Source: Octopus vulgaris (Eukaryota). Taken from it: a stretch of DNA of 64,000 bases. Under the pieces are notes generated by a model, which had not been told where the DNA came from, did not search any database, and saw nothing but the letters and a program-made list of their open reading frames with translations. The stretch is from NCBI GenBank assembly GCA_951406725.2, contig OX597826.1, positions 59,086,001 through 59,150,000 on the forward strand, written 5' to 3'. Every line of letters starts with the position of its first letter. The first letter of the stretch is position 1. This document shows, piece after piece, positions 14,832-45,826 of this stretch. The position numbers were made by a program, and so were the translations under genes.

Positions 14832-14870
14832 ATTATACACATATATATATATATATAAATATATACTTAC

Positions 14871-16705
14871 TCAAAGAGTGTGCCGCCAAAGATCAAAGAC
14901 GGTGCCGACAGAGATCAAAGAGGCTGCCGAACCGGTCCAACCCGTACCGGTCCAAACCGGTTCAAACCGAACCAAACCGAACCAAACCGGTTCAAACCGG
15001 ATCAATCCGGTTCAAAACTGATCATATCGGTTGAAACCGGTTGAAACCGGTTCAAACAAGATCAGAACGGTTCGAAGCGGATCAAACCGATTAAAACTGG
15101 TTCAAACCAGATGAAACCGGTTCAAACCGGTTCAAACGTGATCAAACCGGTTCAAATGTCAGGAATGTCCGGAATGTCAGAAACCTCAGGAATGTCAGGA
15201 TATCTGGAATGTCAGGATTTCTGGAATGTCAGGAATGTCTGGAATGTCAGGAATGTCAGTAATGTCTGGAATGTCAGGAATGTCAGCGATCTCTGTCAGC
15301 ACACTCTTTGATCTCAGTCGACAAAGATCAAAAACGGGGCCGACAGAGGTCAAAGAGTGTGTCGACAGAGATCAAAGACGGTTGCCGACGAACCGGTTCA
15401 AACCGTTTTAAACCGGTTGAAACAGGATCAAACAGGCTGAGACCGGATCAAACCGGTTCAAACCAGATCAAACCGGTTCAAACATGATCAAACCGGTTCA
15501 AACAAGAATCGAACCGTATCAGACCGGTTCAAACTGGATCAAGCCTGATCAAACCGGTTCAAATGTCAGGAATGTCAGGAATGTCTGAAATGTCTGGAAT
15601 GCCAGGAATGTCTGGAATGTCTGGAATGTCAGGAATGTCAAGAATGTCAGGAATGTCAAGAATGTCAGGAATGTCTGGAATATCAGGAATGTTTGGAATA
15701 TGAGGAATATCAGAGATCAAAGACGGTGCCGACAGAGATCAAAGACGGTGCCGAGAGAGATCAAAGAGTGTGCCGACAAAGATCAAAGACGGTGCCGACA
15801 GAGATCAAAGAATGTGCCGACAAAGATCAAAGGCGGTGCCGACAGAGATCAGAGACGGTGCGGACAAAGACCAAAGGCGGTGCCGACAGAGATCAAATAT
15901 GGTGGCGACAAAGATCAAAGACGGTGCCGACAGAGATCAAAGAATGTGCCGACAAAGATCAAAGACGGTGCCGACAGAGATCAAAGAGTGTGCCGACAAA
16001 GATCAAAGACGGTGACGAAAAACCGGTTCAAACCGGGTCAAATCGCATCAAATCTGTTTAAACCAGATCAAATCGGTTCAGACCCGTTCAAGCCGGTTCA
16101 ATCCGGTTCAAACCGGTCAAAATACGGTGCCGTCAGAGATCAAAGACGGTGCCGACAAAGATCAAAGGCGGTGCCGACAGAGATCAAAGACGGTGCCGAC
16201 AGATATCAAAGGGTGTGCCGACAGAGATCAAAGACGGTGCCGACAGAGATCAAATACGGTGCCGACAATGATCAAAGGCGGTACCGACAGAGATCAAGGA
16301 ATGTGCCGACAAAGATCAAAGACGGTGCCGACAGAGATCAAGGAATGTGGACGGTGCTGACAGAGATCAAATACGGTGCCGACAAAGATCAAAGGCGGTG
16401 CCGACAGAGATCAAGGAATGTGCCGACAATGATCAAAGACGGTGCCGACAGAGATCAAATACGGTGCCGACAAAGATCAAAGGCGGTGCCGACAGAGATC
16501 AAATACGGTGCCGACAGAGATCAAAGAGTGTGCCGACAGAGATCAAAGACGGTGCCGACATAGATCAAATACGGTGCCGACAAAGATCAAAGGCGGTGCC
16601 GACAGAGATCAAAGACGGTGCCGACAGAGATCAAAGACGGTGCCGACAAAGACCAAAGACGCTGCCGACAGAGATCAAAGTCGGTGCCGACAGAGATCAA
16701 AGAGT
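14871..16705 (+). repeat. Composite tandem array 1 (22-bp GACGGTGCCGACAGAGATCAAA, 10-bp AAACCGGTTC, 9-bp GGAATGTCA blocks)
   Basis: Approximate block order: 22(14871-14929), 10(-15155), 9(-15287), 22(-15390), 10(-15562), 9(-15711), 22(-16017), 10(-16120), 22(-16705). Confidence 0.95.
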
Positions 16706-17262
16706 ACACGCCTATGTGTGTATATGTATATATACATATGTATGTGTGTGTGTGTGTGAGAGAGAGAGAGAGTACGTTCTTGTGTGTGCGTGTCCTGGTC
16801 TGAGATTTTCAGGGTTTTGAGGATAATGGAACCATCCCTTAACCACTATTGTTCCAGGTGTCCACTGATTCGTAGTAATACCACCAGTCAGTGTCCTGTA
16901 GTAATACCACCAGTCAGTGTCGTACCTATGAGCTAACCAGCATCTTATGGCTTGCCTACCTATTCATTTGAAAACTGGTTTCGGCAGGACTCTGTGAAAG
17001 AATCCCTGATGATTCCGTATACACGAAAACAGCATCACATCACTTCATCCTTTGTTAGCTTGATGTTTTTTGCCACTGGATTGAAGATGTTCAAGGACGA
17101 GAGACTGGTCGACGGAATGCAAATCTTCTTTACTTTAAAGAAATACACTGCATGTCTTGGGTCATCTGGATTATCTGTATGGTTCACATCACTCCGACAT
17201 AACAACATGACACGTAGATCTGTATAAGCATTGTACGTATATATATATATATATATATATAT

Positions 17263-26700: not shown

Positions 26701-27809
26701 GTGGTTCTAGGTGTATGTGTGTGTGTGTGTATTTATAAAGATATATGTTTGTGTTCGCGTGTGTGTATGAGTGTGCGTGTGGGTATATATAAATATGCTT
26801 ATATGCGTATTCCTATGACTCTATAGAATTTTCGACAAAGAAATCATTATTTCCTGTTGATGCTTTTTATGGTTATTACCACAAATAAAGACATTATTAG
26901 TGTTGTTATTATCATTCTTGATATTGTTGCAATTATGGCTGCTCTCGTTGCAATTGTTAGTAATTTCGTTGTAGTATTTTTTATTCAATATTTCCATTTC
27001 CAAATAAGCGATTTCTATACATATTTGCATACAAGTTGCAGCAAGTATGTATACTTATAGCTAATTTTGAACAAATACGGCTTCCGACGCTAATAATGTT
27101 GGATTATTTATGTTTTTTTTGCATCTGTGTTTATTTTCTTTTCGTACAATGTTGAAGGTTATCAAGTACTGCAAACTCTATTTAGGATTTCTACATTTTG
27201 CAACATGCTTACGTCTATCTATTCTCATAGGTAATCTATTAAGTGATTTACAGAAATGTTTGTATACTATTCTCCTTATAGTAGCAATTCCAAATGAGAA
27301 GATAGAAACATTCCCTAACTGTCCTATTCTCATATATTATTCCCATAGAAAATATTTACAGAATCCGACATTGCTATATTCGTGAACGGGTTTATGACTA
27401 TCCTCAAAGGTGTTATGTCCATGTATGCTTTTACAGATGTAATTGTATGTGTTTCCAGTTATAGTACCTATATAGAATTGGTTTCAAGAACATATTTCTC
27501 AACTGACAAAACGTTTGATTTTTGTTTCTTTTTCATTCAATACTAAGCAGGTGTAATTCTTTACTTTTTCAGCCATTTTGGGTGTATTGTGCTTATTATT
27601 ATTATTATTATTATTATTATTGACCGCATCATCATGGTCCTCATTAGCAACATCGTCGTCGTCATCATCCACATAATCATCGTCATTGCCGTCGTCGTCA
27701 TCATCACAAAAACCACCACCGCCACCGCCATCACCACCACCACCACCACCACCACCACTGCCACAACCACCTCCACCACCAAAATGATAGTGACCGTGAT
27801 GATGAAATT

Positions 27810-30800
27810 AAAACCGATGTGAACCGGATAAAACCGGTATGAACCGGTTAATACCGGTATGAAGCGGTTAAAACCGGTGAACCAGTTAAAGCTGGTATGA
27901 ACCGGTTTGGTCCGGTTTGACTGGTTTGAACTGGTTTGAACCGGATTGAACCGGTTTGAACAGGTTTGATCGGGTTTGAAACGGTTTGATCCGGTCTGAA
28001 CCCGTTTGAACCGGTTGGTACCGGATTGAACCGGTTTGAACCGGTTTGATCGGCTTTGAACCGGTTTGATTAGGTTTGAACCGGTTTGGACCGGTTTGAA
28101 CCGGATTGAACCGGTTTCTACCGGTTTGAACCGTATTGAACCGGTTTGAACTGGTTTGAACCGGTTTGAACCGGTTTCGGCACAGTCTTTGATCTTTGTC
28201 GGCACCGTCTTTGTTCTCTGTCGGCAACCGGCTTTGATCTTTGTCGCCAACGTCTTTGATCTCTGTCGGCACCACCTTTGATCTTTGTCGGCACACTATT
28301 TGATCTCTATCGGCACCGTCTTTGATCTTTGTCGGTACAGTCTTTGATCTCTGTCGGGACCACCTTTGATCTTTGTCGGCACCGTATTTGATATCTGTCG
28401 GCACCGCCTTTGATCTCTGTCGGCACCATCTTTTGATTAGGTTTGAAGCGGTTTAAACCGGATTGAACCGGATTGAAACTGTTTGAACCGGTCTGAACCG
28501 GATTGAACCGGATTGAACCGGTTTTAACCGGTTTGAACTGGTTTGAACCGGTTTGATCCGGTTTGGACCAGTTTCAACCGGTTTGAACCGTATTGAACCG
28601 GTTTGAACCGGTTTCGGCACCGTCTTTGATCTTTGTCGCCACACTCTTTGATCTCTGACGGCACCGTCTTTGATCTCTGTCGGCACCGCCTTTGATCTTT
28701 GTCGGCACCGTATTTGATCTCTGTCGGCACCGTCTTTGATCTTTATCGGCACACTCTTTGATCTCTGTCCGCACCGTCTTTGATCTATGTCGGCACCATC
28801 TTTGATCTCTGTCGGCACCGTCTTTGATCTCTGTTGGCACCGCCTTTGATCTTTGTCGGCACCGTCTTTGATCTCTGTCAGCACCGCCTTTGATCTCTGT
28901 CGGCATCGTCTTTGATCTTTGTCGGCACCGTCTTTGATCTCTGTTGGCACCGCCTTTGATCTCTGTCGGCACCGTCTTTGATCTCTGTCGGCACCGTCTT
29001 TGATCTTTGTCGGCACCGTATTTGATATCTGTCGGCACCGTCTTTGATCTCTGTCGGCACCGTCTTTGATATCTGTCGGCACCGCCTTTGATCTTTGTCG
29101 GCACCGTCTTTGATCTTTGTCGGCAACGTCTTTGATCTCTGTCGGCACCGTCTTTGATCTCTGTCGGCACCGTCTTTGATCTTTGTCGGCAACGTCTTTG
29201 ATCTCTGTCGGCACAGTCTTTGATCTCTGTCGGCACTCTCTTTGATCTCTGTCGGCACCGTCTTTGATCTCTGACATTCCTGACATTCCAGGCATTCCTG
29301 ACATTCCTGACATTCCAGATATTCCAGACATTCCAGACATTCCCGACATTCTATACATTCCTGACATTCCTCTCATTCCTGACATTCCAAACATGCCTGA
29401 TATTCCTGACATTCCAGGAATTCCTGACATTCCAGACATTCCTCACGTTCCAGACATTCCTGACATTCCAGACATTCCTGACATTCCGGAAATTCCAGAC
29501 ATTCCTGACATTCCAGACATTCCCGACATTCTAGACATTCCTGACATTCCTCTCATTCCTGACATTCCAGACATGCCTGATATTCCTGACATTCCAGGAA
29601 TTCCTGACATTCCAGACATTCCTCACGTTCCAGACATTCCTGACATTCCAGACATTCCTGACATTCCGGAAATTCCAGACATTCCTGACATCCCAGAAAT
29701 TCCAGACATTCCTGACATTCCAGACATGTCTGACGTTCCAGAAATTCCCAACATTCCTGACATTCCAAACATTCCTGACATTCCAAATATTCCTGACATT
29801 CCTGAAATTCTAAACATTCCTGACATTCCTGACATTTGTACCGGTTTGATCAGGCTTGATCCGGCTTTGATCTTTGTCGGCACCGTATTTGATCTCTGTC
29901 GGCACCGTCTTTGATCTCTGTCGGCACCGTCTTTGATCTCTGACATTCCTGACATTCCAGGCATTCCCGACATTCCTGACATTCCAGATATTCCAGACAT
30001 TCCAGACATTCCAGACTTTCCAGACATTCCAGACATTCCTGACATTCTTATTATTCCTGACATTCCTATTATTCCTGAGATTCCTATTATTCCTGACATT
30101 GCAGACATTCCTAACATTCCAGAAATTCCAGACATTCCTGACATTCCTATTATTCCTGACATTCCAGACATTCCTGACATTCCTGACATTCCAGACATGC
30201 CTGACATTCCAGAAATTCCCGACATTCCTCACATTCCAAATATTCCTGACAATCCTGACATTCCAAACATTGCTGACATTCCTGACATTTGTACCGGTTT
30301 GACCAGGCTTGATCCGGCTTTGATCTTTGTCGGTACCGTATTTGATCTCTGTCGGCACCGTCTTTGATCTTTATCGGCACACTCTTTGATCTTTGTCGGC
30401 ACCGTCTTTGATCTCTGACATTCCTGACATTCCAGGCATTCCTGACATTCCTGACATTCCAGATATTCCAGACATTCCAGACATTCCAGACATTCCTGAC
30501 ATTCCTCTCATTCCTGACATTCCAGACATTCCTGACATTCCAGACATGCCTGATATTCCTGACATTCCAGACATTCCTCACATTCCAGACATTCCAGACA
30601 TTCCTGACATTCCGACATTCCGGAAATTCCAGACATTCCTGACATTCCAGAAATTATAGACATTCCTGACATTCCAGACATGCCTGACATTCCAGAAATT
30701 CCCGACATTCCTGACATTCCAAACATTCCTGACATTCCTGACATTTGTACCGGTTTGATCAGGCTTGATCCGGTTTGAACACGTTTGTCGGCACCGTCTT

Positions 30801-31322
30801 TGATCTTTGTCGGCACCGTCTTTGATCTCTGTCGGCACCGTCTTTGATCTCTGTCGGCACCGTCTTTGATCTTTGTCGGCACCGTCTTTGATCTCTGTCG
30901 GCACCGTCTTTGATCTTTGTCGGCACCGTCTTTGATCTCTGTCGGCACCGTCTTTGATCTCTGTCGGCACCCTATTTGATCTCCTTCGGCACCCTCGTTG
31001 TTTGGAATAACAGGTATGTATGGAATGTCAAGAATGTCAGGAATGTCTGGAATGTTAGGAATGTCAGGAATTCCAGACATTCCAGACGTTCCTGACATTC
31101 CAGACATTCCATACATTCCTGACATTCCAGACATTCCAGACATTCCTGACTTTCCATACATTCCATACATTCCTGACATTCCTGACATTCCAGGCATTCC
31201 AGACATTCCAGACATTCCTGACATTCCAGATATCCTTACATTCCTGACTTTTCTGACATTCCGGACATTCCTGACATTTGAACCGGTTTGATCAGGCTTG
31301 ATCCGGTCTGAACCGGTTTGGT
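27810..31322 (-). repeat. Composite tandem array 2 (same three units, opposite orientation to array 1)
   Basis: Approximate blocks: 10(27810-28178), 22(-28435), 10(-28615), 22(-29270), 9(-29838), linker, 22(-29940), 9(-30290), 22(-30415), 9(-30746), 10, 22(-30995), 9(-31278), 10(-31322). Confidence 0.95.
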
Positions 31323-31677
31323 CTGTCACTATCATTTCACTAAAACATTATTGTGACTGTTGCTCCTATCATCGGCTTTGATATATAATCGTTGATGCTA
31401 TTTTGGTTGTTGCTGCTATAGTTTTCTTATGAAAAACAATTAACACATTACCATTTTATGGTGTTTGAATTGTTCCCGGCTGAGCATCCAAAAGAATTTC
31501 GTTTCGTTGTTTCAAAGATGTCGACACCGATTAGAGATTTGTTGAATTTCAGACGTTAGAGAGAGAAGATAGATGCACACACACATACGCAAACACCAAC
31601 GCATTCAGAAAGACGCAGACACACATATCTATCTATCTATATATATATATATGTTCACACTCACATATATATACGTC

Positions 31678-39104: not shown

Positions 39105-39685
39105 AGCGAGCTGGCAGAAACGTTAGCATGCCGCGCGAAATGCCAAGTGTTATTTCGTCTACAGCTACGTTCTGAGTTCAAATTTCGCCGAGGTCGACAT
39201 TGCCTTACATCCTTTCGGGGTCGATTAAATAAGTACCAGTTACGCACTGGGGTAGATATAATCGACTTAATCCGTTTGTCTGTCCTTGTTTGTCCTCTCA
39301 GTGTTTAGCCCCTTGTAGGTAGTAAAGAAATAGGTATTTCGTCTGCCGCTGCGTTCTGAGTTCAAATTCCACCGAGGTCGACTTTGCGTTTCATCCTTTC
39401 GGGGTCGATTAAATAAGTACCAGTTACGCACTGGGGTCGATATAATCGACTTAATCCGTTTGTCTGTCCTTGTTTGTCCTCTCTGTGTTTAGACCTTTGT
39501 GGGTAGTAAAGAAATAGGTATATTTCGTCTGCCGCTACGTTCTGAGTTCAAATTCCGCCGAGGTCGACTTTGCCTTTCATTCTTTCGGAGTCGATAAATT
39601 AAGTACCAGTTGCTATACTGAGGTCGATTTAATTGACTGGCCCCCTCTCCCAAAATTTTGGGCCTTGTGCCTAGAGTAGAAAAGA
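39105..39685 (+). mobile_element. Tandem trimer of SINE family B
   Basis: Units restart at GTATTTCGTCTGCC at about 39334 and 39520, directly after AAAGAAATAG; the third unit has the alternative tail. Confidence 0.9.
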
Positions 39686-44924: not shown

Positions 44925-45152
44925 CTTTTTATTACCCGCAAGGGGCTAAACACAGAGGAGACAAACAAGGACATACATAGGTATTAAGTTGATTACATCG
45001 ACCCCAGTGCGTAACTGGTACTTAATTTATCGACCCCGAAAGGATGAAAGGCAAAGTTGACCTCGGCGGAATTTGAACTCAGAACATAACGGCAGACGAA
45101 ATACGGCTACTCATTTCGCCCAGCGTGCTAACGTTTTTCCCACCACACCGCC

Positions 45153-45153
<1 letters not shown>
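44925..45153 (-). mobile_element. SINE family B
   Basis: Reverse-complement match. Confidence 0.88.
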
Positions 45154-45198
<45 letters not shown>

Positions 45199-45205
45199 TG
45201 ATAAC

Positions 45206-45258
<53 letters not shown>

Positions 45259-45295
45259 CAACAACCACATCAACAACAACAACAACAACAATAAC

Positions 45296-45333
<38 letters not shown>

Positions 45334-45356
45334 TGATAACAATGATAATAATAATG

Positions 45357-45436
<80 letters not shown>

Positions 45437-45438
<2 letters not shown>

Positions 45439-45826
45439 TAATAAAAAATGCTTTCTAATTGATGTATCAATACCGGCTGATGACAACGTGTCTCTAAAAG
45501 AAATGGAGAAACTCTCAAAATACAAAGACCTGGAAATAGAGGTAACTAGAATGTGGAATCTGAAAACAGAAACAATTCCTATCATAGTAGGTGCATTAGG
45601 CATGATAAAAAAATATTCAGACAAATACATAGCAAAAACACCAGGACTTACAAACACATATAACATACAGAAAATTGCACTACTAGGCACTGCACACATC
45701 CTACGCAGAACACTTTCCATACAATAACCATCAGAGCATCACAACAAATCACAGCACATACCCAAGGCACACAGAGCTGTGCTCGGTAGTGAAGTGAAAG
45801 CACGCTATAAAAATAAAACTACTGGA
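45437..45826 (+). mobile_element. R4/Dong-like non-LTR retrotransposon 3' end (restriction-like endonuclease) within (TAA)n
   Basis: KKCFLIDVSIPADDNVSLKEMEKLSKYKDLEIEVTRMW...IPIIVGALG...QKIALLGTAHILRRTL* plus about 100 bp of 3' UTR, flanked on both sides by (TAA)n. Confidence 0.88.

Follow-up and report, generated by a model that had tools for sequence, protein, structure and literature searches.

A satellite that serves as a platform for transcription factors, and satellite arrays that are carried by mobile elements, have both been described. The sections of PMC11526998 cited here already present human satellite 3 (HSat3), a tandem non-coding repeat whose units give TEAD cores, as a binding platform for TEAD/YAP, and propose that it concentrates factors. 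In the Pacific oyster, the array passages of PMC7492417 describe dispersed short arrays borne by Helentrons (HINE), at times two unrelated arrays per element, with monomers of 140-180 bp between conserved element ends; factor sites are not mentioned in those passages. The present analysis concerns two compound tandem arrays in 64,000 nucleotides of the Octopus vulgaris genome (assembly GCA_951406725.2, contig OX597826.1, positions 59,086,001 to 59,150,000 of the forward strand), a stretch referred to below as the window. The contig is chromosome-scale and the genome 2.8 Gb. The arrays are composed of a 22-mer (T, TCF-type), a 9-mer (E, TEAD-type) and a 10-mer (G, Grainyhead-type).

As in HSat3, the motif is present in most units of a tandem array. 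HSat3 is described in the same sections as a degenerate pentamer in megabase blocks with binding shown (PMC11526998), whereas the octopus arrays, where binding is predicted, include at least 14 linked unit types, several of them composite or cooperatively spaced, form dispersed mosaics of 0.2-100 kb, and carry a variant signature of selection. Set beside the megabase HSat3-type arrays adjacent to ribosomal DNA, the largest array seen here was about 100 kb (some ends were not reached), and an Rfam search of nine sources gave one 5S match. The oyster pattern fits arrays of a linked NRF1-type unit, whereas T, E and G are units of 9-22 bp without conserved ends (compared with the monomers in the cited passages of PMC7492417). 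Synthetic reporters of the TOPflash type also multimerise near-optimal sites; the arrays here are natural, degenerate and dispersed, and have no promoter. Enhancers made of repeated host-factor sites are found in viruses such as SV40 and cytomegalovirus, and no viral gene was attached to the arrays described here. A literature search, with subscription journals mostly outside its scope, found no description of this family or of a multi-factor compound satellite. The words 'satellite' and 'tandem repeat' were absent from the main text of the cephalopod genome papers that were covered.

We put at roughly 0.5 the probability that these are non-coding compound minisatellites without fixed ends, whose transcription-factor sites were kept because factor-bound units were copied more often than units that had lost the site. 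Array 1 lies at 27808..31325 on the plus strand, in the block order G36 T12 G17 T31 E62 G2 T4 E38 G2 T5 E36 G4 T10 (inverted E6) E23 G5. Array 2, at 14869..16707 on the minus strand, has the minus-strand order T27 G9 T15 E16 G18 T3, inverted T2, E14 G22 T3; it is flanked by (TA)n/(CA)n tracts, and its T subfamily is identical to that of array 1. According to the block map there are approximately 62 T, 164 E and 66 G units in array 1 and 49, 30 and 49 in array 2. The totals of about 111, 194 and 115 agree with the approximately 100, 200 and 100 estimated in a first-pass annotation of this DNA, which had also described a composite array of three unrelated units, and that description is confirmed: mutual alignment of T, E and G was no better than alignment of shuffles (P 0.35-0.96). 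Derivation of G or E from T had seemed apparent by eye; alignment gave it no support. Both arrays together contain 81 exact CTTTGATC, 131 ACATTCC and 34 AACCGGTT cores, while the other 58.7 kb of the window contain 3, 6 and 0. Long frames across the arrays translate the repeats into low-complexity sequence and are interrupted at block borders, and a coding reading was rejected. Repeat words were present in at least 15 sequencing runs from 8 studies (the 15 listed), and contigs with the 10-mer were assembled from runs of four organisms, so the arrays are neither an assembly artefact nor a reporter construct. No RNA run was among those listed, and when insertion polymorphism was considered, the unique right flank was covered in none of 8 assembled runs.

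Read in reverse, the 22-mer contains an 11-bp HMG site, 4 bp, and then a GCCGACA helper site on the opposite strand. This unit makes up the T blocks at 28170-28436 and 28606-29278 (span 28170..29278, plus strand) and those at 29856-29947, 30309-30422 and 30778-31000. Compared with the fly probes in the supplement of PMC4154663, in the part cited, the geometry is that of an Akimbo (AK) pair with a 4-bp spacer, with a Knock-Knee-0 (KK0) pair on the other side, and there are 66 HMG-helper pairs in the window. In the cited passages of that paper AK6 and FF0 performed best in flies and KK0 fell in the second group; AK2-9 is cited for human TCF1E, and AK4 itself is absent from the fly spacings in those passages. 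The helper agrees with the worm consensus GCCRAnW at 7/7 positions and with the fly consensus at 6/7. A bipartite TCF element consists of an HMG core with a nearby helper in a favoured orientation, read by a host TCF with a C-clamp, and both were found here. The octopus TCF gene (L191-L192, L183) occupies C6:42.73-42.77 Mb of the minus strand; its HMG exons are at C6:42.77 Mb, and an intact C-clamp is divided over two exons 20-40 kb downstream of them. A Pfam search for the TCF N-terminus gave no match. The TCF identity proposed in the first-pass annotation is supported by the core match, the spacing and the helper, which that annotation had missed, but the upstream C of TOPflash-type sites is present in only 14 of the 81 CTTTGATC cores, which weakens its label of an 'optimal' site. 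A 23-bp variant of T was also observed (L049:6351-9975, L070:4493-9638), with an HMG-helper spacer of 5 bp and, in some copies, a GGAATG TEAD core in the spacer.

The E unit fits RMATTCCWD at nine of nine positions, and its 9-bp period yields the cooperative TEAD double motif with a 3-bp spacer. In array 1, 74 same-direction CATTCC pairs have this spacer, compared with 1 and 0 with 2- or 4-bp spacers; in the whole window there are 84 such double motifs, compared with 1 and 0 for other spacers. The site is iterated in this way in the E block at 29279..29833 (plus strand; block map and double-motif count), and further E blocks lie at 29948-30286, 30423-30742 and 31065-31273. The G unit yields AACCGGTT and CNRG-N6-CNRG, which are the Grhl and CP2 consensus sites in the cited parts of PMC5829564 and PMC9223585, and its 10-bp period fits CP2/Grainyhead spacing. 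The block map places a G block with the AACCGGTT core, and CNRG each 10 bp, at 27808..28169 (strand unassigned), and others at 28437-28605, 29834-29855, 30287-30308, 30743-30777 and 31274-31325. One CP2-family exon was found in the genome. The published bipartite TCF, TEAD double-motif, CP2 and Grhl sites, in the parts cited, have the same cores and spacings as these units (PMC4154663, PMC4999783, PMC4546604, bioRxiv 2024.02.22.580842, PMC5829564, PMC9223585), but enhancers carry them as single sites or small clusters, unlike the arrays described here.

Exact matches across the genome numbered 1643 for the most frequent T forms, 259 for runs of four E units and 77 for three G units. The first-pass annotation had proposed a search of the genome for copies, and mapping of loci picked from these exact-count searches gave 83 arrays on 17 chromosomes, 427 kb in all, which collapse into 60 loci; this is a lower bound and is biased to the window's subfamily. 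Array sizes ranged from 0.2 kb to approximately 100 kb, the largest being at the start of C18 and at C14:64.37-64.48 Mb (the latter span was partly fetched). Junctions T>E, E>G and G>T that are identical to the letter were found at 11, 10 and 12 loci, which indicates that the cassette was assembled early and then copied piecewise. T, E and G blocks also adjoin many other tandem units. Among the linked units with sites, two are of the MEF2 type, and the octamer is contained in a 21-mer and in an 86-mer. NRF1 and E2F sites lie in a 22-mer that is joined via a MEF2 array, sites of the STAT, NF-kB and CSL types in a 52-mer, and inverted TEAD cores in a 59-mer; repeats resembling the cAMP response element (CRE) also occur. 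Two 13-mers, a 26-mer, a 32-mer and a 34-mer had no match in the motif panel described below. The labels E2F, STAT, NF-kB, CSL, FOX and CRE are our assumption. The labels MEF2, NRF1 and octamer agree with the parts of PMC4374383 and PMC3575792 that are cited. The motif identification in the first-pass annotation stands and was too modest, given the further linked units with sites, although Grainyhead is its weakest leg. The integration of Wnt, Hippo and Grainyhead input that it had emphasised is not special, because the trio is one of many unit mixtures, and a host enhancer that joins these three inputs is putative.

The distribution of variants among units was uneven. In 3397 T units from the 36 records with at least 25 units, sporadic alleles numbered 22.2 per motif position and 21.9 elsewhere, while amplified alleles, those reaching 10% of a record, numbered 3.1 per motif position and 11.8 elsewhere. 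In other words, mutation was even but amplification was not, and the simplest account is that units with intact sites were copied more. All seven C/G positions of the T motifs were kept at 0.90-0.96, above all five other C/G positions at 0.73-0.89. When columns were permuted within base class (p values are nominal over 17 position-level tests), conservation of the HMG core had p 0.003 and that of both sites together p 0.002, with 60% of units keeping both compared with 38% after permutation. For the NRF1 unit, motif conservation was predicted in writing before 20 new loci were fetched, and it held in 16 of the 16 records with at least eight units (p 0.0008 by position); the conservation includes CpGs, and amplified alleles numbered 0.6 per motif position compared with 5.3 elsewhere. 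Weak constraint was seen for TEAD (p 0.02-0.05, a signal that in E depends largely on one two-state position), the two MEF2 units (0.04 and 0.06) and the TEAD cores of the 59-mer (0.05). The motif was kept in 81% of units for the TCF core, 72-76% for TEAD, 82% for MEF2 and 82% for NRF1. In G, the relaxed Grainyhead consensus WCHKGTTB was kept in 62% of units compared with 57% after permutation (p 0.08), and CNRG-N6-CNRG in 78% compared with 72% (p 0.17). These variant patterns mark the TCF and NRF1 motifs as constrained; for TEAD and MEF2 the constraint is weak. That motifs might be no more conserved than their spacers, as the first-pass annotation had allowed, is contradicted for TCF, as it is for the linked NRF1 motif, but the Grainyhead palindrome did no better than permuted columns; similarly, its observation that variation falls mostly outside the cores holds for TCF and weakly for TEAD, but not for AACCGGTT.

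Several results weigh against preferential copying of units with intact sites. The helper site alone did not reach significance (permutation p 0.06-0.13). The AACCGGTT palindrome was kept in 20% of 2862 units compared with 25% after permutation (p 0.77), and no constraint was detected on the octamers (p 0.34, 0.10) or on the STAT and kB sites (0.42). A pooled allele test over nine units was null and was dominated by low-copy units, and when sites were predicted in new neighbours of the NRF1 arrays, the one new unit scored, a 48-mer, had no panel match. The conservation in the NRF1 unit coincides with a hairpin stem (rho 0.62). Fisher p values of the allele test are overstated because copies share ancestry, and records share ancestry as well, so the position-level tests are the trustworthy ones. 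Three of 14 held-out families had an exact match of at least 15 bits, for which P was 0.02 with 100 motifs and 0.11 with 200 motifs. The motif panel itself was chosen after the units had been seen. Finally, selection on the repeat and selection on the host are inseparable by the present data.

The null for these comparisons was a panel of 11 motifs, picked after the units were known, with results scaled to a repertoire of 100-200. Panel matches were found in 5.7, 0.5 and 0.8% of shuffles of T, E and G, and the product of per-unit values gives a joint chance of approximately 0.002-0.009 for the core matches of the trio with 100-200 motifs, before spacing and helper are considered. Dinucleotide-preserving shuffles of E and G matched in 24 and 54%, high rates that reflect the small number of such shuffles possible. 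Ten of the 14 main linked families matched the panel, compared with 1.5 expected, while a set of 14 unlinked tandem repeats taken at the same loci, one misfiled E array having been dropped, gave four matches, all to the weak FOX motif; this excess is suggestive, not decisive, because of the way the panel was picked. Chance is an unlikely explanation of the motif match.

The suggestion in the first-pass annotation that the element is possibly mobile was correct in that its copies are dispersed, and array DNA therefore does move, but the T/E/G array is not a discrete mobile element with ends. None of the 53 loci with clean flanks had direct repeats of at least 10 bp, there was no general terminal sequence or target duplication, and the shared terminal inverted repeats and target duplication of a terminal-inverted-repeat transposon or miniature inverted-repeat transposable element were not found at these loci. 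Inverted flank copies of at least 12 bp were found at three of the 53 loci, two of them unmasked G units, so the 13-bp inverted copy at 27782..27794 (plus strand) of the right-flank start of array 1 (31325-31337), a possible template-switch scar, is not above chance across loci. T or E blocks occur on both strands in 21 of the 57 arrays, with fold-back junctions among them; one is in the window, where an inverted E block at 31010..31068 (minus strand) runs at its end into a forward E block. Ten of the 19 G loci have another G locus within 5 Mb, compared with 1.2 expected, and six lie at C13:55-63 Mb around the window. A few pairs or triples of loci have 0.4-1.7 kb of one flank in common, which runs into or ends in a microsatellite, and insertion points include short interspersed nuclear elements (SINEs), microsatellites and telomeric repeats. 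Three T arrays, at three of the 60 loci, are joined to one SINE 3' end, which fits mobilisation by long interspersed nuclear elements (LINEs) and SINEs, but the local clustering of G loci argues against LINE/SINE mobilisation as the main route. In 18 of 20 records, the NRF1-type arrays lie inside a Helitron-like element that is conserved and non-autonomous. As a carrier for T/E/G arrays this element was rejected, since it is not enriched there (2 of 159 mapped-array flanks touch it). The main route would be DNA-level copying by template switching or break repair, with occasional hitchhiking.

Preferential copying of bound units would work as follows. TCF (HMG plus C-clamp), TEAD, CP2/Grainyhead, MEF2 and NRF1 proteins would bind the arrays in vivo, and bound arrays, being open or gathered in the nucleus, may become preferred templates for break repair and template switching. 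Such a preference could give rise to new copies without ends, often a few Mb away, to fold-back inversions, and to mosaics of joined repeats, while some arrays would hitchhike on host elements, as the NRF1-type arrays may do in the Helitron-like element and the TCF-array/SINE chimera at three loci. Selection would then act on the repeat itself, akin to an in vivo version of systematic evolution of ligands by exponential enrichment (SELEX), and whatever the arrays did to host genes as enhancers or sinks would be incidental. More tentatively, the arrays may be a natural SELEX in the full sense: satellites without ends that copy-number selection tuned into composite, cooperatively spaced sites, with host factor binding rather than a transposase as the means of spreading. 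In that tentative form its roster would include TCF, TEAD, CP2/Grh, MEF2, POU, NRF1/E2F and STAT/NF-kB, and it might seed super-enhancer-like blocks across chromosomes.

The alternative that survives best, though we consider it rather unlikely, is that the host keeps the motifs, in arrays that serve as signal-responsive enhancers, factor sinks or nuclear-organising hubs; the first-pass annotation had put forward this idea, and a model of this kind has been proposed for HSat3. Motif constraint is expected under such host selection too, thousands of sites would fit in arrays of approximately 60-100 kb, four organisms have the family, and HSat3 with TEAD, in the sections cited (PMC11526998), provides a precedent. 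However, array length and block order vary freely among loci, the insertion points are the SINEs, microsatellites and telomeric repeats listed above, and a scan of the window with a further 20 kb recognised no host exon. In addition, the constraint appears to act on amplification within arrays, and a change in a single unit of a 200-unit enhancer would hardly be exposed to host selection.

It is less probable still that chance and DNA mechanics suffice, with fold-back synthesis favouring self-complementary units that resemble palindromic factor sites without any protein. The G, NRF1, MEF2, STAT, kB and CRE-like units are palindromic, fold-back inversions are common, four motifs are without constraint, and with 100-200 motifs long units often match something. 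In the NRF1 and octamer units, moreover, conservation falls on the paired positions (rho 0.62 and 0.47), so that hairpin folding could account for the NRF1 unit and partly for the octamer unit. In the G unit, however, paired positions are the least conserved (rho -0.7), and the TCF and TEAD units are constrained although they are not palindromic; T and E hardly fold, so hairpins do not explain their constraint. The low joint chance of the trio's core matches also stands against this account. Least probable of all is that the arrays are debris of a discrete mobile element (a Helentron, the 5' region of a retroelement or an integrated DNA virus) whose enhancer or internal repeats evolved host-factor sites for its own expression, as the conserved element around the NRF1-type arrays, the three TCF arrays with a common junction into a SINE 3' end and the recurring unit junctions might suggest, since common ends and target duplications are absent, very few mapped-array flanks touch the Helitron-like element, and long frames near arrays differ by locus and resemble ordinary retroelement debris.

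If factor binding steers amplification, satellite sequence is not arbitrary, which would bear on an old open question about satellite sequences. With sites numbering from hundreds to thousands, the arrays would then amount to natural reporters or sinks of pathway activity, and might, in cephalopods, titrate the output of Wnt, Hippo and MEF2 or rewire it. They would also distort motif enrichment in cephalopod data from the assay for transposase-accessible chromatin (ATAC) and chromatin immunoprecipitation (ChIP), and their conserved positions would report the specificity of invertebrate factors, for example the helper geometry of TCF.

The NRF1/E2F-type 22-mer arrays, of about 4-200 units, lie in or between tandem copies of a 400-520-bp element (L142-L161), which also carries a 52-bp repeat bearing a CCAAT box. 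The end signatures of this carrier suggest that it is Helitron-like. The name also draws on a comparison with the cited passages of PMC7492417. A 48-mer satellite with 98-99% identity adjoins NRF1-type arrays at two C31 places 8.6 Mb apart (L160, L161, L207). E arrays at three loci (L047:5172-5800, L048, L061) have a common junction into one sequence that gave no Rfam hit and presumably resembles the end of a Penelope-like element with a possible hammerhead motif. An isolated 5S ribosomal RNA match, the sole Rfam match over nine sources, lies 3.5 kb from an E array (L047:8646-8758).

Family arrays were found in 1 of 20 contig-end stretches, and most of these ends were without telomere arrays. 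Telomeric repeats adjoin family blocks at two interstitial loci, and interstitial telomeric tracts of 100-280 units were directly joined to T, E or G blocks (L031:443-1682, L208:5299-9997, L133:1-894). The 86-mer was considered as a centromeric satellite and rejected, being present at just two loci. At two contig starts, short TTAGGG tracts are followed immediately on their distal side by very homogeneous (CTGGC)n and (CAGGC)n arrays (L115:1-1437, L117:3138-10000), and a homogeneous (GTTCA)n array lies 1 kb from a T array (L074:446-2037); these 5-mer arrays are possibly the real chromosome-end satellites.

A search of the window against Rfam gave no match. Over 84 kb, comprising the window and 10 kb on each side, no exon of a host gene was recognised, though small ones could escape. 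Frames in this stretch that could be named or recognised resemble transposon debris. One of them, at 45080-45724 (plus strand), follows a (TAA)n tract and had no Pfam hit; we take it to resemble the restriction-like endonuclease end of an R4/Dong-type retrotransposon. Head-to-tail tandems of SINE-like elements are present in the window (39151-39638) and elsewhere (L025:5749-7867; L158-L159), with 184-bp units in up to 11.5 copies and 152-bp units in more than 50, which suggests a general tandem-making process in this genome.

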